DNA of 64,000 nt from Eledone cirrhosa (lineage: Eukaryota): the NCBI GenBank assembly GCA_964016885.1, contig OZ024741.1, positions 284,332,001 through 284,396,000 on the forward strand, read 5' to 3'. Below, one piece after another: positions 20,388 to 63,823 of the stretch; position 1 is the stretch's first letter; each line of letters opens with the position of its first letter. The notes under the pieces are model-generated. The model ran no database searches, was not told the origin of the DNA, and saw only the letters and a program-made list of their open reading frames with translations. Made by a program: the position numbers and the translations under genes.

Positions 20388-20422
<35 letters not shown>

Positions 20423-20425
20423 TAT

Positions 20426-28391: not shown

Positions 28392-28520
28392 CATCAAATT
28401 CAAGTGGTAATATTCTTCCTTGTCCAAATGCTAATACTCATTATTCAGTTTCAACTGTTCAAATAATTCAAAACATGAAGAAATCTAATTTTCTCTTGGA
28501 ACAAATACACATCAAAGAAA
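28392..28520 (+). CDS. Host gene exon A (phase 1-1), lectin/discoidin-like C-terminal strands
   Basis: tttcag|...|gtaagt; 129 nt; SNSSGNILPCPNANTHYSVSTVQIIQNMKKSNFLLEQIHIKE. Confidence 0.7.
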
Positions 28521-28905
28521 GTAAGTTCACGTTTTACTATTTCAATAAAATCCCAGATAGCCCCTTCGTATTTATTACTCTAGGCTAGTTCTTCAATGTG
28601 TGTCTGTCTATTTAACACACTAGGCTAGCTCTACATTGTGTGCACTCTTCCCTTAAGTAAAATAATTTCAACTTAAAATTTGGTAAGCTTGTGAATGTAG
28701 TTTTGTAACATCTTTTACTCTGATTATACTAAGAAAATTACTGAGCTTGCATTTTCCACTACACAATCCACACACAGCCAACCCAAATCATATTACAAGT
28801 CATGAAACAATACACCTCCCATGCACCTATTTGGTGATTTCCACAACACTGCGACAACAAAGATGATAGTGATTTATTTATGGATCACAGAAGATCATTA
28901 TATAT

Positions 28906-29130
28906 TTAACCCTTTAGCAATTACATTACTCTATATTTGCTATATTTTCATGGTAAAGGCTTTATCTCAGATAATATCTCACATAATATTGAATCTATGG
29001 GATTTTGATATTATTTATTTTGAGAACAATACCTTAACATCAGTATGAGTGGCTGGTCACAGGCAGTTTGAACAGGAAGAGGTGAGAGAATTCTGGCCGT
29101 CTACAGCCGGTTCAAATGCTAAATGGATAA
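28906..29130. mobile_element. Possible piggyBac-type MITE remnant
   Basis: ttaa-ccctttagca ... tgctaaatgg-ataa; degenerate terminal inverted repeats. Confidence 0.35.
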
Positions 29131-30399
29131 GTTAATTACATAAATTTGAATAAAATTATGATCCTTTAAGGTTCAGTGACAACCTCTCTGAAGTCTGCAC
29201 CCTGCGTGACTGTTTAGTTGACCTAAATGGTAGCATCAGTCCTGAATACTAAATCCATTCAAACAGCTACATGCTTTTATACAAAATTGAAAGATAAATG
29301 TTATTTATTCTGATATTTATCCAATCTTCTTTTTCTTTTTCTTTTTCTTTTTCTTTTTCTTTTTCTTCTTCTTCTTGAGAGGGTCGTGGGAGCAGAGTCA
29401 TCAAACACTCCTTCCAGTGGGTCCTGTCAGAAGCAACCATCTCCAACTAATCTGTTGCATTGCCAAGTGAAACAGTCCCTGTAGCCATCTTTTAGCTTAC
29501 CTCCAGCTTTGTGAGGTGTTTAGTAGCTTAATTTCAGTCCAACCACTGTGTTGAACATCGTCGATTTTTGTATAGGATCCACTTTTTATTGCATGTCACA
29601 ATTTGGTAAAAAAGAAAATGGCTTGTTTTTGTTTCACAAAAGAAGCAAAAGGCTGATTTCAAAACTGCAATTTTTCTAGTTTTCACTCACTTCACATTCA
29701 CATGGTACTCAGTTTTTCTCCAATGCAGTTCAAATATAAAAAAATTGATCCAATGCTTACTGCTAGCTCTCTTGTAAGTTCTCAAACAGTTGTGTGGGGA
29801 TTTTCTTCCACTAAAGCCTTCTATTAATCATCATAAATGGCAGAAGGACATCCACAACCTTTCTCAACTTTAAGAGTAAATTCCTCACGGTGGAATTTTT
29901 GAAAATGTCATTGCACTGTGCATTCTTTAAAACTTCCTTGGCACCAAACTTCATTGATACTTCTAACCATTTTTGTTGCACTGCAAACAAGTTTGAATTC
30001 ATAGAAATAAATTTGACAAAATCCTGTTTTGATATCTTAACTTGAAAGAGCTGAAAATTGACAAATATGTAATTTACATTAAAAATAGCAAACTGAATGA
30101 GCATAAAATAAGCTTTAAAATGATACATTATTTTACACACTTTGCATGAGTTTTTATTTTAAAAAAATGCTGAAACAAATAAAAACATACAACCTGTATT
30201 AATTTCTGAATAACTTAGCAGTTCAGTTGATCCCTCATATTCTATCCACATAATATTGTATTCATTTATTCTTTTACTTGCTGCCATGTTGGGACACTAC
30301 TGTTATGTAGGATAGACAAGGTGCTAAAATCTCTATATATAGTGTTGGATGATAATCTCTCTCTCTCTATCTATCTATCTATATCAATTCTTTCCTTGT

Positions 30400-30960
30400 C
30401 TAATATTCAGGTCCCAGTAAGGACTGCTACATCAATGTTGAAGCGTGCAAACTCCTTGCAGACAAAAGCAGTTCTCCGTTCAGGTCTTGTGCCATCTTGA
30501 AGATCGAGGGGCATTCTCACATTCCATGTGCCAAAAGTCTGAGTGGAGTGGTTGAGATAATTGAAAGATTTCAAGGGAGGGAAATTTTGAGAAGAAGACT
30601 TGAGGAGGAGAAAAGTCTTTGAGTACCAAAGCCTTGGCTGCAAATTATTTGAGGTGGTCCATAGCTCGCCACTCCATGGCACACACACTTCAGCTGACAC
30701 CATCTGCTGCGCCAAACCTGGACTTGAGAGGCAGGTTCATAATGACAGCTTGCATCGGGCTGCCGACTTGTTCCCATATGTAGAATGTCATCTTGACAAC
30801 CTACCTGCCGGGCATCAGATCGTGCTTAGTCTGATCTCTTCCTTGAATCCTTAGCACTATGGGTGGCACTACCAGGAGACAGAGCACCCAACATCTTTGC
30901 ATTGAAGTTCCTCGAGACATGCAAGCTCTTCCAGCATGACACAGTGATGATCCACAGAGG
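30400..30960 (-). mobile_element. RTE (BovB-like) LINE 5' end with endonuclease start
   Basis: TFGTWNVR..RPERRTAFVCKEFARFNIDVAVL, a typical RTE endonuclease N-terminus. Confidence 0.75.
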
Positions 30961-31185
30961 AGTATATTCTGTAGTACAATATATATATATATACAGACAA
31001 GGTACTAACATATATCTATATATACAGTGTTGGCTGATAATCTATATATAAAGAGAATTGAAATAGAAATAGAAGCATCACTGTAACATTAACTACATAA
31101 TATAGTCTAATAATGGGGTATATAAACCCACTGAATGAGAAAAAGATGGAGTACAGTATATGTGTGCTGATATCCATCTTTTTCC

Positions 31186-31365
31186 GGTGGATTGGCAGTA
31201 TCGATAGAGGGTCGGACGCCATGCTTTGCAGCGCAGCATTACGTCTCTTTATGGTCTGAGTCCAAATCTCACCGAGGTTAACTTTGCCTTTCATCCTTAC
31301 GGGGTCGATAAAATAAAGCACCAGTAATGCACTGTGATAATTGCTGGCCAAAAGTAGGAACAATT
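31186..31365 (+). mobile_element. tRNA-derived SINE
   Basis: Matches 53159-53347 along its length. Confidence 0.9.
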
Positions 31366-31914
31366 CTAAAGCTTTGCTCGCTACATTCCAAACATATTTC
31401 CTTTGTTTCCTTATATATATACATATATATATATATGCTATACTATAGTACAGTATAGCACTGGTAATGCATTAGTTATTTATTAATTTTTCATGATAAA
31501 AGACCAGCTCTATTCAGTTGTTGTTATTTAGCCAGCCCCATCACTTGAATTATCTCCTTTATGCTCCAAACAGTAAAATTTGACCATTTGATTAATGCCT
31601 CATGAAACCAGGGTAAACATAGGCCTGATACACCTCTAGGCTCAAGAAACATTTTAAAACATACTTATTGAAAATCATGCTTTTGTAAAAAAAGTTTTAT
31701 GCTAATCAAATGCCAGCTAATTTAAAGATTTTGTTACCATATTTCTAATGAAAGACTGTCCCTTACGATTTTACAATAATTTTGGAAGTAATCAAGAATT
31801 TGAAGGGATTTAGTAAAATAACTTTCTCACTATCAAGCTGTTGTTTTGAACATAGCTTAACAAACATTCTTACAAATGATTATGATGAAACATTTTTAGA
31901 TTAATATAAACACA

Positions 31915-32394
31915 TCTAAACTATAATAAAGTAAGGAGTGCGGGACTGCGTATGGTTTATTTCTTTTAATCCAGTTATTAAAATAAGTTGGATTACTTTG
32001 AATAAATAATGAATGAATATTACATAATTTATCTACTAAATTTCGTAGCTGTTGATTAAATATATTTTATTACTTATTTAAAAATTTACTTCTTTAAAAT
32101 TTTCAAATTTCAACACTTCTGGTTAGCGATCGCTTAAATAAACATTCATATATTTCCGTCACTAATTTTCTCCTAATGCAGTTTATATATAATACCGTCT
32201 TTTTTTAATGTATCATGGATTACGTTACTTATTACATAAGACAGTGTAACGCAGTCTTCATTCAATTTCTGTGTATATTGTCAATTACAATTTTATTTGT
32301 ATCATATGTACATGTATATATACTTGTGTATAATATCAATATACACACTACACATGCCAGCAGAAAACCACCCGAACGGTGGTTTTTCTGCTAG
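31915..32394 (+). mobile_element. Non-autonomous Helitron (480 bp)
   Basis: A|TCTAAACTATAATAAA 5' end; subterminal hairpin gcagaaaaccacc-cgaac-ggtggtttttctgc; 3' CTAG|T; no TSD. Confidence 0.8.
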
Positions 32395-32474
32395 TTAAAA
32401 TAAACAATGTTGTAGTGGAAAACCAGAAGTGGTTTGATGTCAAAAGGGTTCATGGTTTCTTCTAACTTTTGCAG

Positions 32475-32567
32475 ATGATGAAATTACTACTTATAACTTC
32501 CAAGATGATTATCATGTATATTATATCAGTATAAGCAATGTTACTGAGCCATTGATGAATATCATTG
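32475..32567 (+). CDS. Host gene exon B (phase 1-1), F-type lectin/discoidin-like N-half
   Basis: ttttgcag|...|gtaagg; 93 nt; DEITTYNFQDDYHVYYISISNVTEPLMNII. Confidence 0.75.
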
Positions 32568-33194
32568 GTAAGGATAAATAAAATTTCAGTAAATCATCAT
32601 CATCATTTTACACCTGTCTTTTTATGTTTGCATGGGTTGGACAAGTTTTCTTCTCTAGCATAGTTTCCTTCCCCTTGTCTTATTATCTCCTCCGTGATGT
32701 TCAGCATTTTGAAATCAACTCTCATCCCCCCTACCTTTGTCTTCTTCTTCAGTGTTCTTCATCTTCTGTAGTTTCCTTCCACTGAGATCCTATGGCAATT
32801 CTTCACACAATGATCATCATCCATGTGAATTATGTATTCATGCCATCACAGTAAATTGCCTGTGACATTCATGTGCATATAGCTGAGCATTTTACAGAAA
32901 CCTTCACTCTTAACATAGTTCTCAGGGCTATCAACATGATACAATGTGTGACAACGCTGGCTCTTTTAATTACAATGGCAACTAATTCTTTTCTAGCTGA
33001 TTAAACAGGAATAATGTAAAATAATGTGTCTTGCTCAAAGACACAATGCACAGCCATGACTCAAACTTACAACCTTTTCAATAGCATCTCCCCGAAATAC
33101 ATTAGTACTTCATTATTTTGCAGTACTGGGCAAAATTCCTGCTCTGTCCCCCCCCCCCTCCCTGTTATGAGTATGTCCAGAAGAGGCTTACATT

Positions 33195-33358
33195 TGCTTC
33201 CCACTTATCTTTGACCCTTGATCATACACTTACTCCCATTTGTTTCTGACTTACGCCTACTCCCACTTGTCTCTGACCCTCAGATATACACTTACTTTCG
33301 TTTGCTTTCGAGACTCGGTCATACATGTACTCCCACTTCTCTCTGACCCTCAGACATA
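33195..33358. repeat. Degenerate ~35-bp minisatellite
   Basis: Repeated ctcccactt..tctgaccct..catacacttac units. Confidence 0.6.
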
Positions 33359-33413
33359 AAGATAGATATGATTTAGGTTATTAATGACACATTTCTTGAA
33401 TGTTAATCCATAG

Positions 33414-33590
33414 ACTTTTCGATCGGCACTGGTGATGATAGGAGAAACTGTACTTACATACCATCCGACCCAGTAAAGAATAATACCACAGATGATATCC
33501 TCTGTGAGCCGAACACAACTGGTAGACATCTGCAGACAAGATTACAAAAAACAGTTATAATCAATATTTATGGCATCTACCTATATGGTG
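33414..33590 (+). CDS. Host gene exon C (phase 1-1), F-type lectin/discoidin-like C-half
   Basis: ccatag|...|gtaagt; 177 nt; FSIGTGDDRRNCTYIPSDPVKNNTTDDILCEPNTTGRHLQTRLQKTVIINIYGIYLYG, fitting the F.I..G..C..C..GR.V..VYG pattern. Confidence 0.8.
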
Positions 33591-35355
33591 GTAAGTACCA
33601 AGATCAACTAATGGGTGATGATGATGGCAATAGTTATATGCTGGTTGTGTGATGGTAGTATGATGGTGGTATGTTAGTGGTATGGTGATGATGTGGTGAT
33701 AATCTGGTGGTATGGAGGTGGTGTGATGGTATGCTGGTGGTATGCTAGTGGTATGGTGGTGATATAGTGATGGTGTGGTGGTATGCTGGTGGTAAGTATC
33801 AAAATGAACTCAGTGTGGTGTTGATGATGGCAATGGTTATATGCTGGTTGTATGGTGGTGATACGGTAGTGATGGTGAAGTTTTCAGGTAGTAATATAGT
33901 GAAGGAGTATAGCCTAGTGGTTAGTGGTCTGTTAATATTTGTTACTGAGGGACTGTTACATGCTGTTACTAGTATGGTGAAAGATTGATGTGACAGGGGA
34001 AGGGGTTGAAATACCTGAAAGACTAAAGGTTAATTCTGACTATGGGGTCAGGCGAGAGAAGAGTGATAGGCTGATTTTAGTATATATAGGCCAAGATAGC
34101 TTTTTTCTGGTCAAAGTTAGGGTCTAGAAGTTGATTATGCAATGATTTATTTATTTATTATTTAATGTGTCCACACAATACAATAAAATGCAAGTAAATC
34201 TATTCCACATGCTGCCACCATAAATCAAACTTAAGGGTCAGCCTGTCTTGTGGTCCTGGCTGACAGGATGTAGAAGACATTGCCCTGGAGGATGGTGAGG
34301 GAGTCGTGCTGGAACACCCATTCTACCTTGTGACACTCGCACTTTCATGTAGCCATCTTCACTCCAATACCAGTGAGTAGGGATATGGTTCAGGATCCAA
34401 GAACACCGGAAGTCTTCACTGCCACATGTTCCACCACAAACCTATCAAAAAGTGGACAATCTCAATCTTTTGTAGCCTAGATGGTGAGATAAGTTAGTCA
34501 TGGGGTCTGTGATTTACTTACAAACTGTTAAGGTTTGGCAGGGTTGTTATAACATTGGATATTTCTTCCATGTCTCTGCATTTTCAGTTCAAATACTGCA
34601 AAGCTCAACTTTGTCTTTCATTCTTTCAGGGTCAATAAAGAAAGTACCAGCTCAGTGCTGGTGCAGCCCTCCCTTCTTCCAGTCATCACTTCCTGGATGT
34701 TCAGCAGGATCAAGGGTAGGTGGGTTGAGAGGGTGTTTGTGTTTGCTCATGACTGCATAGGGATCTAAAATATTTTGCAGACGCGTGGTACAGACAACCA
34801 AGTCATACCCGATTACCAGTGATGGCTCTAGTTTAGTTTTAGACCTGTAAACATGCAAACTTACAAGTGTGTGGGAAGGGTAGTTTTTTCAAGATGGCAT
34901 TGTAGAAGTATTTCCATGTTAGAGTGGCGGTGGTGGTAGAATGGTAGTAGTGAAGAACTTCCCTGCACTAGTACTATGTTTTATTAACCTCAAAAGAATG
35001 AAAGCAGAGTTGACCACAAAATCTCAATGTCCCACATTTATTTCACTACAATATTCAGTTTATCATAACATTAAAGAATGTAAAACAATCAGATGCTTAA
35101 CATTTTGTGTACCATTTATAAATTTGTTATCAATCTTGCCATTTGAAATAAGTATTTTTAAGCTCAGTAAAAATTTCTGAAAACGTGTACTTGGGTATAT
35201 GTATATAAGACCCTCCCTCTGCCCTTTTTGGCCTTAATTTTAGTTTTAAAATTCTCATATTTTATATGAGAAAATATGGTACTATGAGATACTACAAATT
35301 GAACTTTCTATTTTGACTTATATATGTACCTGTTTTGCTATATTTCCTTCAACAG

Positions 35356-35537
35356 TCATTAAAATCTACTTCGATCATCCAAATGTTTCATCTGCCTCTA
35401 TGTCAGTGTATTTTGGGACACAGCTGGTCATAGAGAAAACAGTCGCGAGCTCTGAGAAACTTTGCTTGAACAGAAACACAGCCCAAGACACAGAGCTTTA
35501 TATTTATGTAGATATTGCTTCCTGTGCATCTACAAAT
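35356..35537 (+). CDS. Host gene exon D (phase 1-0)
   Basis: ccttcaacag|...|gtgagt; 182 nt, inside ORF 35313-35585; IKIYFDHPNVSSASMSVYFGTQLVIEKTVASSEKLCLNRNTAQDTELYIYVDIASCASTN. Confidence 0.75.
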
Positions 35538-35859
35538 GTGAGTATACTTTCTCCTGCCCATATCATTACCAGGGCCAGTGCCTAAGCAGCCTAAGCTCAC
35601 ATTTTCCCAGCTATGCACCCCAATTAAAACATACACAGCAAAAAATGTTTAATGATTCATTTATCAGAAATTATTATATATCTAATTTAATTATGCAAAT
35701 TTGTATAAAGCTGTGATCCTTTAAAGTTCAATTATGCATACCCCTGAGGGCAATAAATAAATCATTAAATATCTTTGCCACATATATTTTATTTGGGAGA
35801 ATGTGGCATAACTGAGAAAACATGATACATAATTGGGAGAGTGGAGTGCATATTGTAGA

Positions 35860-36025
35860 GCTAGCTTAGAGTGTTAAATACCCAGACACTGGCCCTGTTT
35901 CTATCTAGCTGCATTGTATGTGCCTAGCTTAGATTACTAAATACTAGCCCTGTCTTTATCTAGTTTAGATTGTCTCTACCTAGCTTAGATTGCTAAATAT
36001 CCAGACACTGGCCCTGTCTCTACAC
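35860..36025. repeat. ~58-bp minisatellite, 3 units
   Basis: ctagcttaga..taaata..ccagacactggccctgt repeated. Confidence 0.65.
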
Positions 36026-36769
36026 AGCTCCAACAGTTGTTCCCAAAATGTTATTTTCAAATCGAAATGAGTTCAATTTCATAGAATTTTCAGAAATTCA
36101 AAAATAATGCTTCCTCTCCTATGATATACACTCAAAGTCTCAATCTATGCACAAGAGCTTTTGCTATTCAAACACTAATAAAACTTCCAAATATGGGCAC
36201 TAATATTTTTGTTCCTGTAATTGTTATATTTCCCTATATCTATCTTAACAAAATATGGTGAGTAGAAAAACTGCAATCAACTGAAATTCTCCTTGCAATT
36301 TGAAGACAATATCTCCTTTTAGATGTGTTCAAATCTAAAAAATCTGCAACCCAGTTGTGGTCTCAGAGTGATCGCAAAACTCAAGTAGCAATAGAGATAT
36401 AGTAATGTAATACAAATTATATATATATATATATATTATATATATATGGTGGAGATGATGAAGGAACGTGACAAGTGGAGAGATGCTGTGCTGAATAAGA
36501 CCCATCCCATCCTTGCAAGCAGGGAAAAGCGGACATAAAATGATGATGATGATGATGATGATGATGATATATATACACATAAATGTATATTTTTGAAGAG
36601 TGTGGGCTTGCAAACTATACACATTTATTTTATAGCTACAATATTGCTGCAAAAAGAACATTTATAAATTTGTATGTGGTCAGAAATTGAAATAAGAAGA
36701 TGCATGTTTATATGTATATTTGGCTTGTTTGCTTTTTGTTCATTCATTATTAGAAAGATGAATAACAGA

Positions 36770-39130: not shown

Positions 39131-39278
39131 TATGATACACACACACATGCATATGTGTGTGTGTATGTGTGTCTGTGTGTATCATCATGTATATATATAT
39201 AAAAACAGACATTAAATGATGATAATGATGATGATACATCATCATCGTTTAACGTCTATCTTCCATGCTAGCATGGGT

Positions 39279-39309
<31 letters not shown>

Positions 39310-39344
39310 GGGTGTGAATATATGTATTCTTATATTTGTTTCAG

Positions 39345-39432
39345 ATAAATGTTAAGAGTTACAGTCAAATCGCAAACTCGATATTTATGAAAAGTACTAG
39401 AACTATGAACAGTTGTAGACTGAGATTTTATG
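39345..39432 (+). CDS. Host gene exon E (phase 0-1)
   Basis: ttgtttcag|...|gtaggt; 88 nt; only frame 0 is open: INVKSYSQIANSIFMKSTRTMNSCRLRFY. Confidence 0.7.
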
Positions 39433-40465: not shown

Positions 40466-40671
40466 ATAATGATTGGCTAGCATCAATAAAAATAAATTCC
40501 AGTTCGAATTCCGTACAGAATAATATTTCACTTCTGCTTTCATCGAAGTATGAACTGACAGAAATGCGGCTTGGATATACAGAGATTTTCTTTCTTCCTG
40601 GAGGGAATTGTAACCTTACAAATAACTTATTCATAGAAACGGCCAATAATTCAACTTGGATTCTAGATGAG
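40466..40671 (+). CDS. Host gene exon F (phase 1-0), degenerate PLAT-like N-part
   Basis: aattgtag|...|gtaact; 206 nt; NDWLASIKINSSSNSVQNNISLLLSSKYELTEMRLGYTEIFFLPGGNCNLTNNLFIETANNSTWILDE. Confidence 0.75.
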
Positions 40672-41808: not shown

Positions 41809-41899
41809 TTGAAAATCTCCAGTGAAATCTGCAACAGATCATTTAAATTTGTGCATGGTGAATATCTCACGAAACAAATCTATTACATTTATCCTGAAG
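41809..41899 (+). CDS. Host gene exon G (phase 0-1), PLAT-like C-part
   Basis: attatcag|...|gtaaga; 91 nt; LKISSEICNRSFKFVHGEYLTKQIYYIYPE. Confidence 0.78.
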
Positions 41900-43115: not shown

Positions 43116-43354
43116 GTATAGCTAAAAGAAATTTAACAATTAAAACACGCAATTCTGGGCATGGAACTGATGATGGTGTAATTGCGAAAATATATGGTAC
43201 CCATTGCGCTTCAAACACTACTCTAGATACAATTTATGATGACTTTAAACCATTTGCTACAGACACCTTTGAAATAGCAATTCCTGATTGTGGACTATCA
43301 AAATGCATAAAACTTTTCCATTTGGGCACAAATTTGAGCTTTCATCTACATGAT
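43116..43354 (+). CDS. Host gene exon H (phase 1-0), clearest PLAT/LH2 domain
   Basis: ttttactag|...|gtaagt; 239 nt; IAKRNLTIKTRNSGHGTDDGVIAKIYGTHCASNTTLDTIYDDFKPFATDTFEIAIPDCGLSKCIKLFHLGTNLSFHLHD, fitting PLAT motifs T..GTD.V...YG, F....D.F.I, D.G, I.L.H. Confidence 0.85.
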
Positions 43355-45630: not shown

Positions 45631-45659
45631 TCCAACCTATATCAGTATGAAAAGTGGAT

Positions 45660-46380: not shown

Positions 46381-46405
46381 TTATTATTATTATTATTATT
46401 ATTAT

Positions 46406-48780: not shown

Positions 48781-48799
48781 ACAGAGCATATAAATAAAT

Positions 48800-51700
48800 T
48801 TACAGTAGAATAACATAACAAATATGTTTTAAATATATACATAAATAACATTACAAATGCCTCGGTGACACTACAAAGGATGATACAATGAAAGATATAT
48901 TCCTTCAATGCTACAATATTAAAGAAAATGTAAAGGAAGGGGTGAACAACGGAGCTAACACCAGAGCAAAAAGACAGCAACGTCGCGAATACTGGGCAAC
49001 CTCTCTAATGATTTTTGAGGCAAGCCAGCACACTCGCAGCGTTGTCTCGAGTGATGGTGAAGCTGATGCGCTGAAACATCAAAGCACCCTCGCGAGATTC
49101 GCCAGTCACCTCTATTAGGCGAGCCGCCAGTGAGGAAAGGAACCTCGCAGTCAGCGGCCCGACTCCCCCAAACGTCTCGAAAGCCACAGGCTGAAAAATG
49201 TAGCTGGCCGACAGATCAGAGTATTTGAGGGTCTTACTCCGCTCAGCTGCAGAAGCTGTGGCTCTCGTCCTAACCGCAGCATCCAGGATGTGGGAAAGAG
49301 CAAAAGAGTCACTAACAGTGACGTCCCAGACAAGGCACCTGCCTCTCGACCAGGGGCACAGGGTAAGACCGTCAGGTCTTTTGCCGTCACTTCTGGACAA
49401 CCCAGATGGTTCCAAGACTGAGAGGATATTCGACCGGGCCAAAGCTCTCTTCAGAATGAGGTTTAGCCTCGTGTGACGCGCGAAGCGGCCGGCATTCAGG
49501 CGGTAAGAAAGACCATGGAGGCCTGTAGAATCGAGGAGTTTGCCGCAACTGCACCACAAACCCATGCAGACGTCAGCTCCCACTCTGAGAGCGATGGAGA
49601 CACGAAGTTCGCCCAGGCTAAGTAGGCCACCAACGTTGGCCACGGGTAGGGCATCGACCCAGTCGCTTGAGTATTTGGCGCTGGCAGATAATAAGCGGCA
49701 CCTTGCAAACTGATCTGACTGGACAAAGAGGAGTCGAAGGTGGCCTTCGAACTTATGCTGTCCCAAGTTCTCTGACTTCGACTGTCCTCCACCTTCTCAG
49801 GAAAAGACAAGCCCAACTCACTCCATTGCTGGAGAGCTTCACCCAACTCCCTGTTGGAACTAGTCCATGTTGGAAAGGAGAGGATTCTGCTCACCAGGGT
49901 GGAGCAAGCGTGGGTGAAGGAAAGGAAGCAAGGGAGAGAGACGGACGAACACTTACGAAGACCAAGACGCCCAAATCGCTTGGGCAACGCAGCCTGATGG
50001 CGGGACTCCGGAGAGAGTCTCACATTGACCAGGCACTCGAGTCTCCCGAAGATTAGGTCGTCGAAGCGTTGGAGTCAGGACGGAAATTTGTGAGAGGGGC
50101 TGACCCTGAGCAGATACAGAAGCTTAGGAATAGACAGGTAGTTCCTGAGTATGAAGAAACCTTGATGAGGTTCGATAACTTCGATATTCCTCAGCAGCTG
50201 CTCAAGGCCAACCATCTTCGATTGAAAGGTTGACTCGAAGGCCAGGTCTGTGCTTGGGGCTCTTAAGAAGCACCAAGCCGACGGGGAAGGGAAGGACTCT
50301 GCGAACAGGTTGATCAGCTGTTGATGTTAAGAAGCCGGGTGGTTGAGGATCCAGAGCTCACATTTGGAGCTATTGATCTGGAGACCCCGGCGGCCAAGCT
50401 CCTCCACCATTCTGTTGGCAGTGGCGAGAACCATATCCGGAGTTCTCCCCAAACAGGCATCGTTGAGGTACCAGACATTGAGGTCAACTCAACCCCCATC
50501 TTGGTGACGTCATCAATGGCCAGTGCAAACAGTGCGGGCCCGAGTGGGTCACCATGTTAGACTCCTGAGGCAGAGGTGATGATCTGGTCACCGAAGGAGA
50601 GTTAGGAGGGCTCCCGATAAGCCTGCCAAGCAAAGTGGTAGAGTTATGGGACCCTCTCTCTTACTGAGCCGAGGACGATGTCGCGGCTGACGGAGTTGAA
50701 GGCATTCCTGAGGTCAAGTTTGAGGATGACTTTGGGGATGAGGAGGGCAAGTTGGTAAATGCTCTGGCAGCATGGACAGCAGCCTCACATCTCAACCTGG
50801 TACCCACCTCCAGCTGGATGGGGGAAAATTCCTCCTCCAGTGAGTCGGAGACCAACAGCAAACACGCCTTTGCAGTGAGGCGGCGAAGAGTGCAGCCAAC
50901 TGCAATGGGGCGCAGGTCCCCGTTGGGCTTGGTGAGACCAAATAGCTTCGCACCGAAGAACAGTGGACGGATGAACGGGAGAACGTTCACTGAAGAGAAC
51001 TGATTCACAAACTGAGTCAGACTCTCCAAGAGCTCGAGTCCAGCGCCACCGGCTGATAAGGAGATACCATCCTTGAGGTGTTGAGGACGAAAGCCGTCTA
51101 TTCCCACGCCTGACCCAGCGGGGAAGGATGAATCGCCTTTAGATGATATCGGTGGTGTAAGCCGGTCTCAAGTATTCTGGTGGTTCGGGCCAGTGTAGCT
51201 GATCATCTGGGGGTGCTGATGCGTGTTTTTCTTTCAGTCGCTCAAGAGAATCAGAGTTGCACGGAGCAAGGGAGGACAGAGAAGAGAGGAGACGGACAGC
51301 CCCTTTAATGTCAAATTCGCTGAATTTGGCATTGACCGCTCGCTTGAGGTCTACCGGTTGTCTGTTGGTGGACACCGAGCTCGATGTCGAACTGAGATGA
51401 AACGTGGTTGGGGTGGACTCAAACAGCTGGAACTGCCGCTTGAGAGAGGACGCGAGGGAACCTGAATTCGCATTGTGCACGTGAAGAGAGATGAGGGGAA
51501 ACAAAAACAATTTCTGCCAGTCAGACCTATTGTTGGACGAGCAAACGTTTTTCAGTAAATTAGAGAGGGCACGTGCAAAGCTATTCCGAGCTCCCTTAGC
51601 TTTGATTTGGAGAAGCCCTGGAGGGCTGTGGCAAAGTCGTCGGTAGAGAGTTGGTCATCAAAGCATGGGGCATCCCCACGGAATACGTCAGAGTTGAAGT

Positions 51701-52480
51701 GGAACCGATTGCAGGTCCAGTGTTGAAGCCTTTCGGCTTGAGCTTTGGTGATGCCGACACAGCTTCTGTGGTAGCTTGCGTGGCATAGGTGACATTTAAT
51801 TGTCTTTAAGTACCAGCTAGTGCGGGCACAGAGAGCGCAATCAGGTGGTGGGCTGGCAGCCGCCGGCAGTAGAGGGCCAGCGCTGGAATTCGGTGGAGGG
51901 AGTGAGTCAGTAAAGGAGACAGCAGTGGTTCTAACGGTGGGACTAGAGCGGAGGTTGAGGTGGTGAGCTAACAGTTGTAGGGGTGGTGTGGTTGACCGGG
52001 TTGGATTCGTTCGGAATCTGCCGCGAATAGGAGGAGGGGGTAGGTCGGGGCAAGTTAGCTCCTCTCGTGCGTGCCGCAGTTGGTGGAGAATGAGAGGTCG
52101 AAGGCTGACCGTTTGGCACATAGTCGTTCCACCAAGCAGGTCTCTTGGTTGTTCGACGCATAGAGTGGTCTAGGTTAAAGTGGTGGCAATTTTAGCAATC
52201 GGCAATCGCCGGTGATAGTTCGGTCGAAACATCGGGCCACCGACGGGTTGAACGAATACCTAGGTGGGCTGTGCGCGAGGACGAAGTAAGGGGTGAGCAA
52301 GGGGAGGGATAGAAAGTGCAGAAGGGGTGAGAAGATTATGAGTGCGTGGAGAGGAGTGTGGTCATGTCAGAGGCAGGTAAATACAGTGGGAGAGAAAGAG
52401 CACTGAACATGCAAAGAGAAGGAAAATACATAAATAACAATAATAATTATAAATTGCTCGCAATTCGTTCAGAAGGACAA
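48800..52480 (-). mobile_element. Near full-length, decayed CRE-like non-LTR retrotransposon (PHD finger, RT, RLE)
   Basis: GIDGFRPQHL, KPNGDLRPIAVGCTLRRL, CEAAVHAAR, GDPLGPALF, LPKRFGRLGLR, RSDGKRPDGLTL, WDVTV, FETFGG; N-terminal CxxC..CxxC..HxxC..WxC. Confidence 0.88.
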
Positions 52481-52629
52481 ATATAATCTCTAAACCGTGT
52501 ATAATAATACAATAATATAAATTCATTGAACAAAAATGACAAAGGAAAGAAAAGAGAAAGAAAAAGGGGTGGGGGAATTCATCACTAAGTGCGATAATCG
52601 GCCGCACCTTAGGGATTAACTGCACACTT

Positions 52630-53050: not shown

Positions 53051-53158
53051 GTGGTCGCAATTTTAATAAAGAAAATTATGTTATAAGGACGATTCGTGTA
53101 TAGAATATATTTTTGGCTGACATTGTTGGTTCTCGCCCATTATGTTTCCTCTTCGTTT

Positions 53159-53347
53159 AAGGGCGGTGAATTGGCAGTATCGGTAGAGGGTCGGACGCCA
53201 TGCTTTGACGCATAGAGTTACGGCCCTTGCCATTCTGAGTTCAAATCCTGCCGAGGTTAACTTTGCCTTTCATCCTTACGGGGTCGATAAAATAAAGTAC
53301 CAGTAATCTACTGAGTAATTGCTGGCCTTGTGCCAAAAGTAGAAACA
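53159..53347 (+). mobile_element. Full-length tRNA-derived SINE with 20-bp TSD
   Basis: A-box-like tggcagtatcgg, B-box gagttcaaatcc; TSD attatgtttcctcttcgttt at 53139-53158 and 53348-53367. Confidence 0.93.
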
Positions 53348-54817: not shown

Positions 54818-57800
54818 GAATGCCATGGTTGACGGAGGCTCGGCTCTGTAAGGTATTGTAAATTTTGACCGCTATAACAATTGTAAATTGTTTAAAACTT
54901 TAACCAAATTGTAGACAAAAACACCCTCCTCCTCGTGAGAGGGGTCTTTCTGCCCGTTATTTTGCCCTTCGGGGTTAAATAACCGCTTATTGGGGTTTTG
55001 TACCCAATATTTATTTTAAACAAAAAAAACATGGCAACGAAAAATAATTTTCATAGGTCACTCCCACTCATTCCGTCTTCTTCTTCCTCAATCGTCACTA
55101 CAGCAGAGAGAAGATTGTCTCTCTCCCTCCCTTCTCTTTCGCAAGCGACGCCAGTCAAGAAAAATCACATGAAAATCATGAAACATTTCTCCACGACGAC
55201 GACAATGACGAAAAAGGTGTGCGGTAAATACGAAAACTCATTTCATTCGTCTGACGTCAGGAATAATAGCAGTAGCAGCCGTAATAACAGCAGCAGCAGC
55301 AACAGTGACAAGGAAAACAACAGTAGCAGCCGAAACAGCATCAGCAGCAGCATAAACAACAACAGCATTAGCAGCAACAGCAACAACAATAGCAGCAGCA
55401 GCAACAACAACAACCACAGCAACAGCGGCGGCGGCAGTAGTCGTAGTACCTGCAGCAACAACAAAAGTAACAGCAGCTCTGACGACAACGACAACAACAA
55501 CAACAGCAGCAAAGAAAAACCAATCTCGTTTGCAGGTATCGCAAAGAACCTGGAAACCATCCTCATAACAAATGAGGAATTACAGGAAGCGAAGAAGATG
55601 GTGACGAAAACCGGACACCGAGCAATCTGCAAGGCAGTCGAAACATTTTTCGAAACCCAACAGCACTGTACGGTCACGTACCGTACAGTAAGCACAAAAT
55701 CCTGTAGGGTTGAAAGAGCCAAAGAGGCTCAAATACAAAAAGCCTTAGGGTCTGTGTGGCAGCGGAAACACATATCACCCGAGGCAAGAAATATGCCACC
55801 GTGGACGTGCTTTTTGCCACACCCCAGGAGGCAAAGGCTAAATCCTTAGTGACCCTAAGGAGCGAGGAAATGGTGTTGGTGCCCTCCTACTGCGGGAAAA
55901 AAATTGTACGGGTCAAACTGCCCCCCCCCCCCGGGATGACCCCTTCTTGGCTGGCCGCGCGTCTGTCCTCGTCGGAGTCGAGGACAAAACAACTGTACTG
56001 CAAGTACAGAAAAAAGTAAGAAAAGATTGGGTCGGCACCTCCATTGAGATGTTAATCCAAACCAACCAGGAGTGCATCGAAGCTATCCCGGATGTGATAG
56101 ACTTCGATAACGGCACTCAACTGCCCATAAGTGTTGAGGGCAAACGCCCGAAATGCTTTCGCTGTGGATCGAAGACTCACCTCAGGGCCTTCTGCAACGA
56201 GAAGACCCTGAGAAAGGAGAAAACCCCCTCCTTCCGAAACCGGCTCCACGGCTACCAGCAACAGGACAAGCGGCAACCAGTAACGATAGGTCCGTGGCAC
56301 CCATACCCACGCCACGGAAATCAAGAACAACAGCAGCAGTGGAAGTATTAACAACAAGAAACAGTAATACCAAATGCAGCTGCAACAGAGACTCCACTGC
56401 AAACATCACCAACAACAACAAGTAAAAGAGTGGAGCTGGTACCCCTCCCCGACCTCACAGAATCAGACATGGAGTGTGAGGTAGGAGAGGGATGGCAAAA
56501 CGTCGTAAGAAGGCACACACGCAGAAGCAGCGCATCGTCGCCTTCGAAAAGGGAGGAAAGAAATGAAAAAAGGGTAAAGGCTACTGCAAAGAGACTCATA
56601 GCAGCAACACCACCAACACCATCACCACCCACACTAGCACCACCATCACCACCGGCAACAACCCCACCGCCAACAACAACAACATCTTCAACACCACCAC
56701 CACAAGCACCAACATTGCAAACAAAACAACAAAACACACACACCCAGCAACAACGACAAGAAAATAGCAGAACCACACCCACCCCCAGAAAAATAAATGC
56801 ACGGCAATAAATACACACAACAAGAAACTAATGACTTACATAATTGAACACACAGACATTTCACAGCACGACTACATAATACCAGTACCAATCAAAACGC
56901 CAACTAACATAAGACTGCTAAAAATAGCACAGAAACAATACACAAACATTAAAACGAAATTCCCCAACGCAGTTGGTGATTTCAGAAACCTAGGAGGGAT
57001 TCTCAACCGGAGAGTATATTCGGACATACTCATAGAAGAGCCGACGACCAGCCGAAGGGACGATTCAACGGTCCCTTCACCAGACGATCAAGTGAAAAGG
57101 GATGGAAAAACCATCCTTCCTCTACGAAAAGTACGGTAAGTGGTCTTTCCCATCTTTTCCACTCTATTTTAAACATGACCTCACTCAGAATAGGCAGCAT
57201 AAATGCGCGTGGCTTGGAGTCGTCATGGAAGCAGGGTCACCTGCTCAACGACCTCAGGTCACTAAACATAGATGTAGTGGCCATCAGTGAGACCAGAATC
57301 TCCGAAGCACGGGCCTTCGCACCGATCTTCGGCGGCTACGATGTGTACGCATCTCCCAGCCGTCCTGGATCGGGGGGAGGAGTTGCTGTGCTTTTTCGGA
57401 GAGGTTTGGATCTCGCCATACGGGCCATCTTCCTGGACCCAGAGGGTAAGTTGGTGGTGCTGGACGTGACCAGCGGAGACGGGCAAGCTTTCAGGCTAGT
57501 GGCCGTCTATGCCCCGACAGGAGCAGGGCGGCCTGATTTCTTCCGGCGTCTGGAGACCTTTCTAGGAACGTCCCGCTCTTTAGTGTTAGTGGGCGACTGG
57601 AACGGGATCTTAGATGCACGCTGGGACTGTGTGGGATTAGCGGATAGGGGTGGAGGGTGCAAGAGCCTCACCAACCTGCTCAGGCGTTTTGAACTGTCTG
57701 ACAGGTACCGATTGGATTTCCCGAATGTGCCAATGTGGACTTGGACAAATCGTATAGGGTCATCCAGATCATATCTAGATAGAGTATTTTGTAGGGAAAT

Positions 57801-60800
57801 AGATAAGTTTAGCATAGGCTGTCCACAATTCAAGATAGTCAGCTACACGGACCACAAATTCGTGATCTGTGTGCTTGGCTTAGATAGGCTTCATAGACGA
57901 GGACCCGGCTACTGGAAGCTAAACGCGTCCTTACCAGCGCGCAAGGCCTACAGAGACCGGATTAGCGAACTAGTTAAGCGGGCGTTGACGGGGGCCATCG
58001 TCAACAACAAGTGGTGGTTTGCTCTGAAAAGAGCGATTAGAATAGAATCGATTAGGTTTAGTAAGGCTTTAGCAATAGAGAAAAATAGAGCAGAGGGAGA
58101 ACGAGTTAGAAAATTAGACGAGGCGCTTAGCAAAGGCATTGTGACTGACGTACTTGCGGCGAAATTGGCCATTGACCAATTCTTCAATGCAAAGCACGAA
58201 GGCTGCGTTGTCAGAGCTAGGGTGCGTGCTCTTAGACACGAGGGGACGAAAGCCGTTCAATGGGCCCGAGTGGCGGAGGCGCGTCGTGGCAACAAAGCCA
58301 CGATCCGGTCTTTGGTGGACCACGACGGGTGCATGCTTGTCGATCCCGGGCAAATGTGTGAAGCTTTTCAGCGACACTTCGCTCAGCTGTTCGGGGGCAG
58401 CGGTGGGCCGGGTCGAGGGATCGACTTTAGTGTCTACCTCGACGGACTGCCGCGGCTCTCGGCCACTGAGGCGGAGTGTTGCGAAAAGCCGATAACAGCC
58501 GCTGAAGTAAGGGAGGCAATGATTGGCTGCACAAGGGGTAAATCGCCTGGTTTGGATGGTCTGCCCTATGAACTTTACGTACAGATGCCAGACTTGTTCG
58601 GAGGCCTCTTGGCGGACGTCTACTGCAACTGGCAACAGAACGGGAGAATTCCCAGTTCTGTGAGCCGAGGAGCGGTGGCACTGCTGAGAAAGGATCCGAA
58701 CAAGGGGGAATAACATAGATAATTTCCGGCCCATAACTCTGCTAAACACAGAGTTCAAGATTTTGGGCAACGTGCTAGCAAAGAGGTTGGCGTTTGTCGT
58801 TGGTGGTCTGGTGGGAGAGGCGCAGACATGCGCCATTCCCGATAGATCCATCCACGACAACCTCCACCTCATGCGATACATCGTAGAGAGGGTAGCTAGG
58901 GAACCTGGCACGGGTGGGTCCTTGATCAATTTAGATCAGTCGAAAGCTTTCGATAGGGTCGACCATCGTTACCTAGCGGCAGTCCTGAGGGCGGCTGGCT
59001 TTGGGCCCGTCTTCAGAGGCTGGATCGCTGCCATGCACAGCGACATCTGCTCTGTGGTGAGAGTGAACAGTCACCTGTCGGAACCGTTCAACATCATGCG
59101 CTCGGTCCGCCAAGGATGTCCCCTCTCGTCCCTCTTGTACGTATAGACTCTCGAGCCATTACTGCACAAACTGGAGACGTTGAGGGGAGTCCCGCGCGAA
59201 CTAGGATGCGGAAGATCCGTGTCAGCATATGCGGACGAAGTCACCGTAGTGGTGTCGAACGCCAAACACATCGAGGCGATCGGCACTACACTAAGGGAAT
59301 ACGAAGCGGTGACAGGAGCAATGATCAACCAGGAAAAGTCAGTGGGCCTGCAGCTCGGCACCTGGAAAGGCAGGTCCATGCTGTCCAACAGCGTCGTCGG
59401 ACGGACCGGTTAAATTGCTAGGTGTCTGGTTCGGTCCGGACCTCCAGACGGACAAAAACTGGGACGAGGTGACGAGCAGGGTGGCTTCTCTCACCCAGAA
59501 ATGGGCGGGGAGGAAGCTATCCCTGAAAGGTCGAGCGGAGGTGGCTAACGCGCACATCGCGTCTGTCATCTGCTACCGCCTGACCGTCGTACCTTGTCCT
59601 AAGCCTCGCCTGACTGCGCTGGAGCGTTTGCTCTTTCGCTTTTTGTGGAAGGGACGCGCTCCGATGGTCAGGCGGTCCATCTGTTGTCAACACCCGCTAC
59701 GTGGAGGGCTGGGCATGCCGTGGCTGATGATGCGCAGGCACGCGCTCAGGCTGCGACATCTCCACCTCTTCCTCGACGGTGATCAGGTGTGGTCGCCGTT
59801 TGCTAGACACGTATTTCCCCAGCTCGTTTCCTTGACGGAGCTGCAGTCCTGGGTCAAGCGAAGACCGAGAGGGAGCGCCTGGAGACTGGAATGTCTTCAG
59901 GCGCTCACAGCCCTCGACCAATCGGGCAATGTGATCGGTGGAAACTCCACCTCGGCGTTCTATAGAGGATTAGTGGAGGGGAAGAGCGATGACGTACTTG
60001 GGGAAACTCTAGGCGTCGACGAAAATCAACTAGCCAATCTCTTCGGAAGAACTTTCGGGCCAGGGCCTATGGACAACTTCCAGAAATCTCTGGCCTGGCA
60101 GTGCTACCGAGGAGCCTTGCCAGTTCGGGATAAACTCTACAGGCATGGAGGTGCCGTCAGCCGGGCATGTCCGAGATGCGCGCAGGGCGACGAAACCGTC
60201 CTGCACGCACTCGTCCAGTGTCCGAAAATTGCTGACTTGTGGGTTTATGTCGAACACCTGCTGTCGCGTTTAGGACGGATCCGGCTATCATCTGAGTCCA
60301 TCGTGAGGATTGCCCTGCCCTCCTCCTTTAGCCGGGAAGGGCAGGCAGTTTTTATCTGCCTGGTGGCCATGGTGAAAGAGATAGTATGGTGGACACGTTT
60401 GAAAGGGCTGAAGATGAGCACTTACCTCTTCGGTGATGCTCTGATTGACTTTTTCAAATTTCATTTGAAAAGGAAAATCAGAGTAGAGAGGGAAGTGCTC
60501 TCTTCCCAGCATTTTGTTGAAAGATGGGTGAGAGAAGCAAGAATGGCCCGAGTGAATGGGCCTACTCTGAGTATATATCTGTAAATTAAAGGTGGAAAAC
60601 TGGGAGAGGGCACTTGCCTTGGTGGTCAGGGTCATTGTGGCTTTTTACTGGGCTTTCACCACAAATGTCCCTCCGAAGTCTCCCCCCTATTGGGGAATTT
60701 TTCATTGTTATTTTCATTGTTATTTTTGTTACATCCTCTGTTTTTGTTTTTTACACGCAGAAATGCCCATTTGTACCGTCCTGCATTGTCCTGCACTGTC

Positions 60801-60843
60801 CTTAATGTCTACTTTATGTAAACCCTTGTGGTTAATAAAGAAA

Positions 60844-60845
<2 letters not shown>
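54818..60845 (+). mobile_element. Near full-length Tx1-clade LINE flanked by (ATT)n
   Basis: ORF1 remnants 55031-57170 with zinc knuckle CFRCGSKTHLRAFC; ORF2 from 57175; (TTA)n at 54792-54817 and 60846-60902. Confidence 0.93.
57175..60584 (+). pseudogene. Tx1 ORF2 (APE endonuclease, RT, C-terminal zinc finger) with three lesions
   Basis: SINARG, ISET, VGDWN, YLDR, TDH; KSPGLDGL, LDQSKAFDRVDH, VRQGCPLS, AYADE; CPRC..ETVLHALVQC. Frameshift ~58710, stop 59144-59146, frameshift ~59405. Confidence 0.92.
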
Positions 60846-60902
<57 letters not shown>

Positions 60903-61142
60903 GTGGTGGTGATGATGATGGTAATGTTGAAGTTTATGAAGATGATGATGATGGCTGGGAGTATGTGTATGTAGTTTGTATCTTTCTAGGTATCTGTAAT
61001 CCATAACTCAATCATGTATTATTGGCAGTGTATACAAGAACAAATATAATACATCATAGAGCTTAAGGTTGCCAGAAGTCTTGGTTCTAACGGTTATAAC
61101 TCTAAAATATTTTACAATGAGGCTAATCATACATCATTATGC

Positions 61143-61327
61143 GTGGTGAATTGGCAGTATCGGTAGAGGGTTGGATGCTATGCTTTCTAGCATAGTTACG
61201 TCCCTTTACAGTCTGAGTTCAAATCCCGCTGAGGTTAACTTCGCCTTTCATCCTTACGGGGTCGATAAAATAAAGTACCATTAATGTACTGGGTAATTGC
61301 TGGCCTTGTGCCTAAAGTAGAAACAAT
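61143..61327 (+). mobile_element. tRNA-derived SINE (TSD attatgc); older copies at ~40235, ~41190, ~61635, ~62050, ~62920
   Basis: Matches the 53159 copy along its length. Confidence 0.9.
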
Positions 61328-62372
61328 TATGCAGCATTTAGCAATTCCTATACTCTGTACTGTGTAATGTGATTTTCGCCATACACCATACGTCAAGCGT
61401 GTGCCATTTGATAACTGTGCCATCTGATCACTATAGTTTCTGATTTAGAGACAAGGCCAGCAATTTGAGGGAAGGGGAAAGAGAAAATTGATTATATATG
61501 ACTTTAGTACTGAGGGCAAATCTTCCGCTATCTCTTTGAGTCTCTTTCTCTGGAAGAAATTGGCCGCATTCCAATATGGAGAGGAAGGGGCTACACCAGG
61601 AGTTTAGGGTCCTTTACCTATCTTGCTATACTTGGACTTTATTTCATCAACACCAGAAATATGAAAGGCAAAGTTGACCTCAGCAAGATTCGAAGGCAGA
61701 ATGTGAAAGGCCATAACTAAATACTGCAAAAAAAACAAACAAACCCAAAGGCATTTAGTCAGATGCTCTAATGATTCTACCTATATACTGCCCTTATAAA
61801 TATAGATATAATAAACATGGAAGTTGAATGAAACGCAATTGGATTAAAATAGAGACTATTCCTTCAGTTGTTGGATCCAACTATTTTTTCCCAGTGGCTA
61901 CTAGGCAAAATCATTCTGGAAGAAAGCTGAATATAGATTCTAATATAGCTTTAATTAATACATGTGTCCTATAATGTATTATGAGGTAGCGAATTGCCAA
62001 AGTTATTAGAACACTAGATAGAATCATTTGTGATATTTGTTTCAGCTCTCTGTGCTCTGAGTTTGAAAACCTGCTGTGGTCAACTTTGCCTTTCGTCCTT
62101 TTGAGGTTGATAAAATGTACCAGTCCAGTAGTGGGGTCAAATCTTCCTCTATATCTTTTTCTCACTTCCTCTCTATCATTCTCTCTTTCCTCCTCTGGAA
62201 AAAATAGGTTGTGTTCAGACCCTGAGAGGAGTGGACTCCATCAGATTTAAAATGTGTATGTCACCATGGTGCCCCTATAACTCTATCATGAGTTACTACA
62301 GATCCATTTTTACATAATGTAATTTTTCTCAGAGATAATCTTGCATAATACTTCATAATTTTAATTCTCTAG

Positions 62373-62463
62373 GTAAAAACATCTATACATGAAATAAATA
62401 AAAGTTATACTAGGAAGGATCCAATATTTGATACTCTGTATTGTAGTAATGAAACACGTGGAA
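62373..62463 (+). CDS. Host gene exon I (phase 0-1), PLAT-like C-part
   Basis: ttctctag|...|gtaagt; 91 nt, same length and phases as exon G; VKTSIHEINKSYTRKDPIFDTLYCSNETRG. Confidence 0.78.
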
Positions 62464-63608
62464 GTAAGTTTTACTTTGTTTTACTCATAGTATTTTGTAA
62501 CACATTTATCAAGGTTGTATGTTTGGTATTTCTTGAATAATACATGTGATCTACTTGAATATTTCAGTAAAATAGGACACAGGGGCAGACATTTGATAAA
62601 CATATGTGAAGGCAGGTGGTACATAAAGTGCTGGTCATCAGGTTCAAAGTAGGATAAAGCATTGTGGTTCTTATCACATATGCCTTCAAAGTGTCAGCAT
62701 ATGTTGTCCTCTTTCTCAACATGCACCAAAGTAGTCTACAACAATTTATTCAAGCCACTAATAATAGTAATAATGATTTCTAAGGCCAGTAACTTAGGGA
62801 GAGAGGAGGGGGATTCAATTATATCCCTCCTCAGGTCACAACACAGCTGATTTCTTCCAAAGAAGGAGAGAGCGGGAATGAGAGAAAGAGAAAATAAGAA
62901 AGATAGAGGAAGAATTGACTCCAGTACTTAACTAGTACTTTGTTTTATAGATCCCGGAAGGATGAAAGGTAAAGCTGACCTCAGCAGGATTTGAACTCAG
63001 AACACAAAGGACTGTAACTACAAGCTGAAAAGCATTTCATTTGATGCTCTAATGATACTGCTAATCCACTGCTCTTCAATAATCTGATAATATTTCTATA
63101 AGAGTAAAAATACACATCTAGTTTCATGTAGAAGGTAACTTTGCAAGCTGGGGGTGAGGTAGCATTTCATATAAGACTGATTAAGATTTGGAATATCCTC
63201 TTTAACCTGTTGCTCAATAGAGAAAGATTTCAGCAACTTTTCCTTTTGCCCTTGCTCAGTATCTCCACACTAACAAATGCTGCACAACATTTATTCCTAT
63301 ACTGCAATGATTCTGCCAATCACCCACCCTGCTCTTATATAAAATAATGTTAAACATTTCATCTTGGTATTTGGTGTTTTTATTGGAAGCAAGACCATCC
63401 AAAAATGTAACGATAAATGTTGGTCAGTTTTGATTTAAATGGGAACCCTTTGAACATGTGATTTTATTTCATAGACCCAACGGTGGTTTTGGCTGGATTG
63501 ATATCAAATGGGTTAACCAACGATTTTAATCTTTCTTATTTATCACTTTTTTCATTTTTACCATCTTACATTTTACCTATTAAGATGCACAGATATATTT
63601 ACTAACAG

Positions 63609-63823
63609 ATATCAAATGGACAGTTGTTACGAGCCAAAACACCGGTAGGGAATATCTCTCATTAAGTTTACAAGGTTCTTTGCTCAATGAATCTTTCCTG
63701 TTTTTGGCTGGTGTAAGGCGTACACAATCAGCTGATTACACTATTCACATTCAGGATATTGGACAGTTTCTTATCTTGAATTTGGAATGGTATCATTTAC
63801 CCTACACTATGGAGGACAAAAAT
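63609..63823 (+). CDS. Host gene exon J (phase 1-0), PLAT-like N-part
   Basis: actaacag|...|gtaagt; 215 nt; IKWTVVTSQNTGREYLSLSLQGSLLNESFLFLAGVRRTQSADYTIHIQDIGQFLILNLEWYHLPYTMEDKN (DIG..L.L.W motif). Confidence 0.8.

Follow-up and report, generated by a model that had tools for sequence, protein, structure and literature searches.

The 64,000 nucleotides (nt) of Eledone cirrhosa DNA analysed here (contig OZ024741.1, positions 284,332,001 to 284,396,000, forward strand; referred to as the window) carry ten exons of a gene, A to J, which likely encode the ectodomain portion of a type I membrane glycoprotein, together with the remains of mobile elements (Table 1). The first-pass annotation of this DNA had given the exons by length only, and their positions were recovered by a scan for open-frame segments of those lengths between an AG and a GT. 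A single phase-compatible plus-strand chain running from A to J was found, with an AG acceptor and a GT donor at all ten exons; spliced, they make 1511 nt and 503 codons with 0 stops, so that the ten GT-AG exons and the approximately 503 stop-free codons that had been claimed were reproduced in full. The introns measure 846 to 3954 nt, with the exception of H-I, which spans 19,018 nt. From exon D onward, the phases run 1-0-1 four times and short exons (88, 91 and 91 nt) recur, which is the pattern of a repeated two-exon cassette. Rfam returned 0 matches.

Table 1. Exons of the gene, their agreement with Octopus homologues, and other features of the window
Feature	Position	Strand	Length and phase	Reading	Identical residues; family-profile E
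Exon A	28392..28520	+	129 nt, phase 1 to 1	opens putative N-terminal F5/8-like module	11/38 (XP_014780237.1), 15/39 (CAI9732741.1); E 0.006
Exon B	32475..32567	+	93 nt, phase 1 to 1	mid part of putative F5/8-like module	12/29 (XP_014780237.1); E 4e-5
Exon C	33414..33590	+	177 nt, phase 1 to 1	closes putative F5/8-like module; conserved Cys pair 18 residues apart	30/59 (XP_014780237.1); E 1e-15
Exon D	35356..35537	+	182 nt, phase 1 to 0	module 1, first half; unclassified, exon pattern as in PLAT units, no PLAT signal	26/61 (XP_014780237.1)
Exon E	39345..39432	+	88 nt, phase 0 to 1	module 1, second half; weakest exon	6/29 (XP_014780237.1), gap-free
Exon F	40466..40671	+	206 nt, phase 1 to 0	likely decayed PLAT repeat, first half	22/69 (homologue alignment)
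Exon G	41809..41899	+	91 nt, phase 0 to 1	second half of likely decayed F+G PLAT repeat	14/30 (homologue alignment)
Exon H	43116..43354	+	239 nt, phase 1 to 0	core of clear PLAT/LH2 domain	35/78 (homologue alignment)
Exon I	62373..62463	+	91 nt, phase 0 to 1	end of clear PLAT domain, 3' of 19,018-nt retroelement-filled intron	8/29 (homologue)
Exon J	63609..63823	+	215 nt, phase 1 to 0	PLAT repeat 3 (likely decayed), first half; gene runs past window	25/71 (homologue alignment)
(AT)n microsatellite	7171-10182		about 3 kb
Decayed LTR (long terminal repeat) retrotransposon pol	15334-17222	+		reverse transcriptase, RNase H
DUF4371-like transposase fragment	18457-19113	-
Stop-free frame	20328-22213	+	540 codons	reverse-transcriptase-like YxDD region, then GIY-YIG-nuclease-like frame
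PHD-finger element	49008-52169	-		in intron H-I; PF00628 before fragmented frames resembling a non-LTR retrotransposon
Near-full-length LINE (long interspersed nuclear element)	54983-60650	+		in intron H-I; PF03372 endonuclease, PF00078 reverse transcriptase, PF13966 zf-RVT, broken frames; region like open reading frame 1 before

The spliced product aligns in one piece with an uncharacterized protein of Octopus bimaculoides, XP_014780237.1 (LOC106876261, 925 amino acids; 189 of 491 residues identical, 38%; E 9e-105). All 12 of its cysteines are conserved there, and 7 of its 19 N-x-S/T glycosylation sequons occupy the same column. When a profile of four Octopus proteins, the window sequence being left out, was run against the 3057 six-frame open reading frames of the window, the frames of exons H, C, D, F, J, G, B and A came out as the top eight (E 3e-26 to 0.006, the next frame scoring 1.3), which argues that the exon chain is not a product of chance. 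Exon I reached only E 11 in that comparison and exon E was not listed at E ≤ 50; these two belong to the chain because each exactly fills a gap in the homologue and brings one conserved cysteine. The alignments to XP_014780237.1 and to a second relative, O. sinensis XP_036364684.1, span the H/I and I/J joints. Exon J has an alternative acceptor at 63585, and the one at 63609 is favoured because the homologues lack the corresponding 8-residue insertion. That the ten-exon chain is a real piece of a gene, with its splicing predicted, is thereby confirmed at the level of sequence. The three sequencing runs listed, all from one sample, look like DNA contigs, and exon joints do not occur in them.

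The relatives were reached through exon H. A full scan of 1.84 billion representatives gave 27 matches at E ≤ 0.001; two of these align in a single stretch (48% and 46% identity), and both are uncharacterized Octopus proteins, XP_036364684.1 (LOC118765933) and O. bimaculoides XP_014791170.1 (LOC106884345). Searching with an alignment of the two added XP_014780237.1 and O. vulgaris CAI9732741.1, and searching with the paralogue XP_014791170.1 returned only itself and XP_014780237.1. Pfam analysis of 14 exon H matches found PLAT repeats in ten, no family in the two Octopus proteins and unrelated families in two. A word-based search with exon H yielded no homologue (9 candidates), and a PDB sequence search gave 0 matches for XP_014780237.1 and exon H; with the alignment A6 (E 0.8-0.9) and with exon C (E 0.027) it gave matches at chance level only. 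The O. vulgaris gene model omits D+E and G-J exactly at the exon borders of the window gene, which likely belongs to a small octopod family with four relatives found in databases. The gene had been called hidden; it is so only in this window, and the annotations of three Octopus species list its homologues as uncharacterized. The accompanying suggestion of a lineage-restricted, undescribed protein has held up: relatives were found only in Octopus, all uncharacterized or hypothetical, six family identifiers do not occur in the literature searched (main texts, few subscription papers), and no description of the family or its architecture was found among the matches listed, in main texts only, octopus gene tables possibly using other identifiers. 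The records of XP_014780237.1 and XP_014791170.1 each give a contig of equal length (60,576,134), which suggests one chromosome and possibly a cluster.

The composition of the product points to the outside of the cell. The hand count of 19 sequons was confirmed; 8.2 +/- 2.5 would be expected in 503 codons, and 0 of 5000 shuffles reached 19. Asparagines in sequons are conserved in 12 of 19 cases, as against 4 of 23 for other asparagines (p=0.004). The ectodomain of XP_014780237.1 has 19 sequons for 9.0 expected (3 of 3000 shuffles) and XP_036364684.1 has 9 for 4.7 (80 of 3000); among 12 multi-PLAT control proteins the largest count is 11, for 5.9 expected. The excess, the selective conservation of sequon asparagines and the lack of a comparable excess in the controls together support an extracellular location, and the piece is very probably a genuine extracellular glycoprotein domain. 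Topology has to be taken from the homologue, since the signal peptide, stalk, helix and tail, as read from its hydropathy and composition, correspond to parts of the window gene lying beyond the window. No hydropathy peak above 1.5 occurs in the 503 residues themselves. XP_014780237.1 has two peaks, at residues 18-36 (2.02) and 897-915 (2.77); the first follows a basic N-terminus, looks like a signal peptide, and has exon A aligning directly behind it. Ser+Thr make up 0.38-0.44 of residues 751-850, and the protein closes with a CxCxC motif, an amphipathic segment, the helix at ~897-915 and ~10 further residues. XP_036364684.1 and XP_014791170.1 end in the same way, and the juxtamembrane-to-end part is the best-conserved region between paralogues (43 of 82 residues identical, against about 30% overall). 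The glycosylated extracellular ectodomain proposed by the first-pass annotation is thus supported by the signal-like start, the stalk and the single C-terminal helix of the homologue, as well as by the sequon asparagines.

Residues 844-925 of XP_014780237.1 (CxCxC, amphipathic helix, polar motif, membrane helix) have no Pfam match and may define a wider mollusc family of membrane anchors. Similar CxC...PDxR...helix endings are, we presume, present on many uncharacterized mollusc proteins. The parts consulted of PMC10140915 and PMC9261976 contain nothing on this juxtamembrane motif.

Exon H is the one exon with a recognizable domain. It matches Pfam PF01477 (PLAT/LH2) at E 2.9e-4, with 22 bits against a cut-off of 23, and in the Atlas it lies among PLAT clusters (0.94, 206 shared features), with a recognition value under the Atlas bar. 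Eight of the ten exons, taken singly, had no Pfam match, and exon E had sub-threshold chance matches, among them a Myb match (E 0.008, under the cut-off) that was dismissed as such. Against a profile of 215 PLAT repeats drawn from 22 exon H matches, hhalign gave H+I a probability of 96.9% (E 2e-10, 0 of 40 shuffles), a score that is partly circular, the profile having been built from exon H matches. F+G scored E 0.0018 (0 of 40 shuffles), and J joined to the next exon of the homologues (J+K) scored E 0.0035 (1 of 40); in global mode F+G (91 columns) and J+K (93 columns) each stood above 25 of 25 shuffles. A+B+C, D+E and the later module of the homologues gave no signal with this profile, shuffles of D+E doing as well in 18 of 40 local and 23 of 25 global comparisons; the shared exon phases nevertheless suggest that D+E derives from the same cassette as the PLAT units. 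D+E was also tried as a repeat of the homologue's later module and set aside as weak (E 0.036 in local mode; 0 of 50 shuffles in global mode, but outside the cysteine register). The product therefore holds one clear PLAT repeat (H+I) and two likely decayed ones (F+G and J onward). The assignment of exon H to PLAT stands, and the tandem array that had been proposed survives for H+I clearly and for F+G and J+K weakly, but not for D+E; profile comparisons with F5/8 domains, of the HMMER/HHpred type that had been recommended, gave at best a marginal result.

The N-terminal part is best treated as a lead: A+B+C may form one F5/8-like module, not the several F-type-lectin-like modules that had been envisaged. 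F-type lectins have a fucose motif, HX24RXDX4(R/K), and a cation motif, h2DGx (PMC5712786, seen in part). The fucose motif is absent from the window module, XP_014780237.1 and CAI9732741.1; h2DGx is also absent, and there is one candidate cysteine pair instead of two clamp disulfides. What remains of the fucolectin/F5_F8 pattern claimed for B+C is a likeness to F5/8 below threshold, without the fucose and calcium motifs. Exon C (177 nt) contains three of the four differences on a 990-nt DNA contig (at 33529, 33532 and 33558), and two of these change an amino acid; with one contig per run, one sample and a post hoc comparison, this is a hint of tip-domain variation only.

We give somewhat better than even credence to the following reading. 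The ten exons would account for the first 500 residues of a product that is collinear with XP_014780237.1, and these would form the glycosylated ectodomain of a single-pass adhesion or recognition protein of the cell surface. A tip, possibly with an F5/8 fold, would stand clear of the membrane on a rod of PLAT domains, one of them clear and two likely decayed; by analogy with the homologues, a signal peptide would come first, and the rod would be followed by a further cysteine-bearing module, an O-glycosylated Ser/Thr stalk, a juxtamembrane module of CxCxC and amphipathic helix, a single transmembrane helix and ~10 residues of tail. The PLAT units may have arisen by tandem copying of the two-exon cassette (phase 1-0-1 and a short exon of 88-91 nt, four times) and then acquired disulfides and N-glycans, to serve as spacers or protein-contact modules instead of calcium-dependent lipid anchors. 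The tip would bind a partner, probably not fucose. Having no cytoplasmic domain, the protein would depend on a partner for any signalling, and the conserved juxtamembrane module may recruit that partner.

Several points weigh against this reading, in addition to the partial circularity of the H+I score. The membrane anchor is borrowed from a relative of 38% identity that may be a paralogue. Neither the start nor the end of the window gene was found within the window, as the first-pass annotation had also reported; crude upstream scans for a signal-peptide exon produced 2 and then 1 candidates, none resembling the start of the homologue, and these were dropped, being no more numerous than on the control strand (2). 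The sequon excess of XP_014791170.1 is not significant (10 against 6.7 expected; 328 of 3000 shuffles). No Pfam family appears at E ≤ 10 in XP_014780237.1, CAI9732741.1 or XP_036364684.1, and the exons of the window have no Pfam match to the F5/8 family. The Atlas neighbours of A+B+C are F5/8 type C, at 0.86-0.88 and ~100 shared features, below threshold; comparison with the F5/8 fold gives a template-modelling (TM) score of 0.50-0.59 on a model whose predicted local distance difference test (pLDDT) is 0.34. Against 81 bacterial F5/8 domains gathered from 127 genomes (70 loci), hhalign found A+B+C marginal (E 0.065, 2 of 60 shuffles); global mode gave no match, nor did a comparison with 7 lectin-like bacterial domains.

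The foremost alternative, which we consider improbable though by no means negligible, has the same topology but a PLAT array that retains its ancestral function and, outside the cell, binds lipid surfaces such as lipoproteins, vesicles and the membranes of microbes or prey; the protein would then be a scavenger or a pattern receptor for lipid plus glycan. Membrane binding is common for PLAT domains (PMC7436259 and PMC6299612, each seen in part), and the middle PLAT is the best-kept sandwich in the four octopod proteins; exon H, which is less decayed in the window gene than its counterpart in the Octopus relatives, keeps the acidic pair before the conserved Phe. 5-Lipoxygenase holds calcium through Asn43, Asp44 and Glu46 and meets membranes through Trp residues (PMC5113960, in the part seen), and by its spacing the acidic loop of exon H would correspond to that calcium loop. 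However, the Glu that follows the Phe in 78% of the 215 PLAT repeats is Lys, Arg or Gln in all four octopod proteins, the 99%-conserved PLAT Trp is retained in only one of the four (XP_014791170.1), the flanking repeats are strongly decayed, and the 5 sequons of the H+I module would shield its surfaces. A broader proposal, which we also rate as rather unlikely, is that octopods moved a LOXHD1-type tandem PLAT array outside the cell and gave it a discoidin-fold tip and a mucin stalk; the result would be a class of surface receptors of their own, reading lipid or other hydrophobic cues on touched surfaces, microbes or gametes.

Less probable than lipid binding is that the protein forms a structural coat in the mucus of skin, suckers or gut, either shed or anchored by glycosylphosphatidylinositol (GPI), and protects instead of acting as a specific receptor. 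Dense N-glycosylation, a mucin-like stalk and a C-terminal hydrophobic stretch with no cytoplasmic domain would suit such a protein. The stretch, however, adjoins the conserved polar motif without a spacer and has charged residues at its end (judged by eye against general rules for GPI signals), and the conserved Cys-rich juxtamembrane module exceeds what a coat would need.

There is a slighter chance that the window gene is a decaying copy, or a paralogue whose C-terminal half differs and makes it secreted, multi-pass or enzymatic. The product is ~38-40% identical to XP_014780237.1 and XP_036364684.1 and 32% to XP_014791170.1, whereas the first two, the orthologues of O. bimaculoides and O. 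sinensis, share 76-78% with one another (76% over the region of the window gene); the family has paralogues, XP_014791170.1 being one, and the end of the window gene is out of view. On the other side, the ten exons are free of stops and frameshifts, every cysteine is kept, both known paralogues share the stalk-helix ending, and a quick tree joins the window gene to XP_014780237.1/XP_036364684.1 (SH-aLRT, an approximate likelihood ratio test, 91, below the 95 mark). The octopod branch of that tree is very long, and a donor among LOXHD1 repeats cannot be named.

A cytosolic, tail-anchored multi-PLAT protein resembling LOXHD1 is very improbable: other exon H matches are multi-PLAT proteins, two of them named LOXHD1-like, and basic residues stand immediately before the C-terminal helix, but the signal-like N-terminus and Ser/Thr stalk of XP_014780237.1, the selective conservation of sequons together with all cysteines, and the modest sequon counts of the 12 controls speak against it. 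A chance joining of open frames, to which the weakness of several splice sites in a crude weight matrix might have pointed, is refuted by collinear homology across nine joints at the E value given above, the reversed homologue scoring 2.4 at best.

The long H-I intron is filled with retroelement remains, the LINE and the PHD-finger element of Table 1 among them. A fragment related to its PHD-finger element lies near 2500-3200. The 540-codon frame has no Pfam match at E ≤ 0.001; we take it to belong to a Penelope-like element. According to the depth table, very high-copy short repeats occur in several introns.

For a family that databases list without any domain, the preferred reading of an adhesion or recognition ectodomain supplies an architecture, exon H of the window gene being what exposes its PLAT ancestry. 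Secreted lipases carry extracellular PLAT. Single extracellular PLAT domains are known, and a description of a membrane-anchored ectodomain of tandem PLAT units was not found among the matches listed. If the fold holds, a membrane-binding module of intracellular type would have been recruited, through duplication of an exon cassette, into a fast-evolving octopod surface protein, one that could be tested for a role in recognition by gametes, immune cells, skin or suckers. For now it is one of the many uncharacterized, lineage-specific glycoproteins of molluscs; the gene and its extracellular nature are well supported by sequence analysis, and the architecture is partly resolved and apparently undescribed.

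Among known systems, LOXHD1 and LOXHD1-like proteins share tandem PLAT and are the nearest non-octopod matches to exon H. LOXHD1 consists of up to 15 PLAT repeats and a coiled coil (PMC11387651, seen in part), whereas the octopod family has at most 3-4 highly diverged units on a long branch, with disulfides, glycans, a stalk and a membrane helix; in the controls named LOXHD1-like, no hydropathy peak exceeds 1.2. With its other modules, stalk and C-terminal helix, as predicted from the homologue, the family is not LOXHD1. Two unnamed tandem-PLAT proteins, P0016 and P0001, have an N-terminal hydrophobic stretch; P0016, an exon H match, has two PLAT domains and a signal-like start, and secreted or anchored PLAT arrays may exist elsewhere. 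Polycystin-1/REJ resembles the family in that a PLAT domain and a large ectodomain occur together in a membrane protein. The one PLAT of polycystin-1 lies inside the cell (PMC13755561, in the part seen) and comes after the REJ and GPS domains of a protein that crosses the membrane several times (PMC4890752, likewise); in XP_014780237.1, by contrast, REJ and GPS were not detected (Pfam, E ≤ 10), and PLAT precedes a single C-terminal helix. The premise that PLAT is cytoplasmic was too broad: Plasmodium PfCCp3/PbLAP1, a signal-peptide protein, carries LH2/PLAT among adhesion domains, and its sister proteins have discoidin/F5-F8 (PMC10892792, seen in part). Its single LH2 stands with LCCL, SR and LamG and no sequence link was found, so that it is a precedent for location only. 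With F-type lectins and F5/8 type C domains, A+B+C shares its size, its Atlas clan neighbours and a cysteine pair 18 apart, comparable with the Cys108-Cys124 pair of eel agglutinin (PMC5712786), and differs in lacking a CC pair and a second disulfide as well as the two motifs. The closest likeness is to Octopus XP_014780237.1, XP_036364684.1, CAI9732741.1 and the paralogue XP_014791170.1, which share 32-40% identity with the window gene, are annotated as uncharacterized or hypothetical, and agree with it in collinear sequence, in all cysteines and in exon borders.

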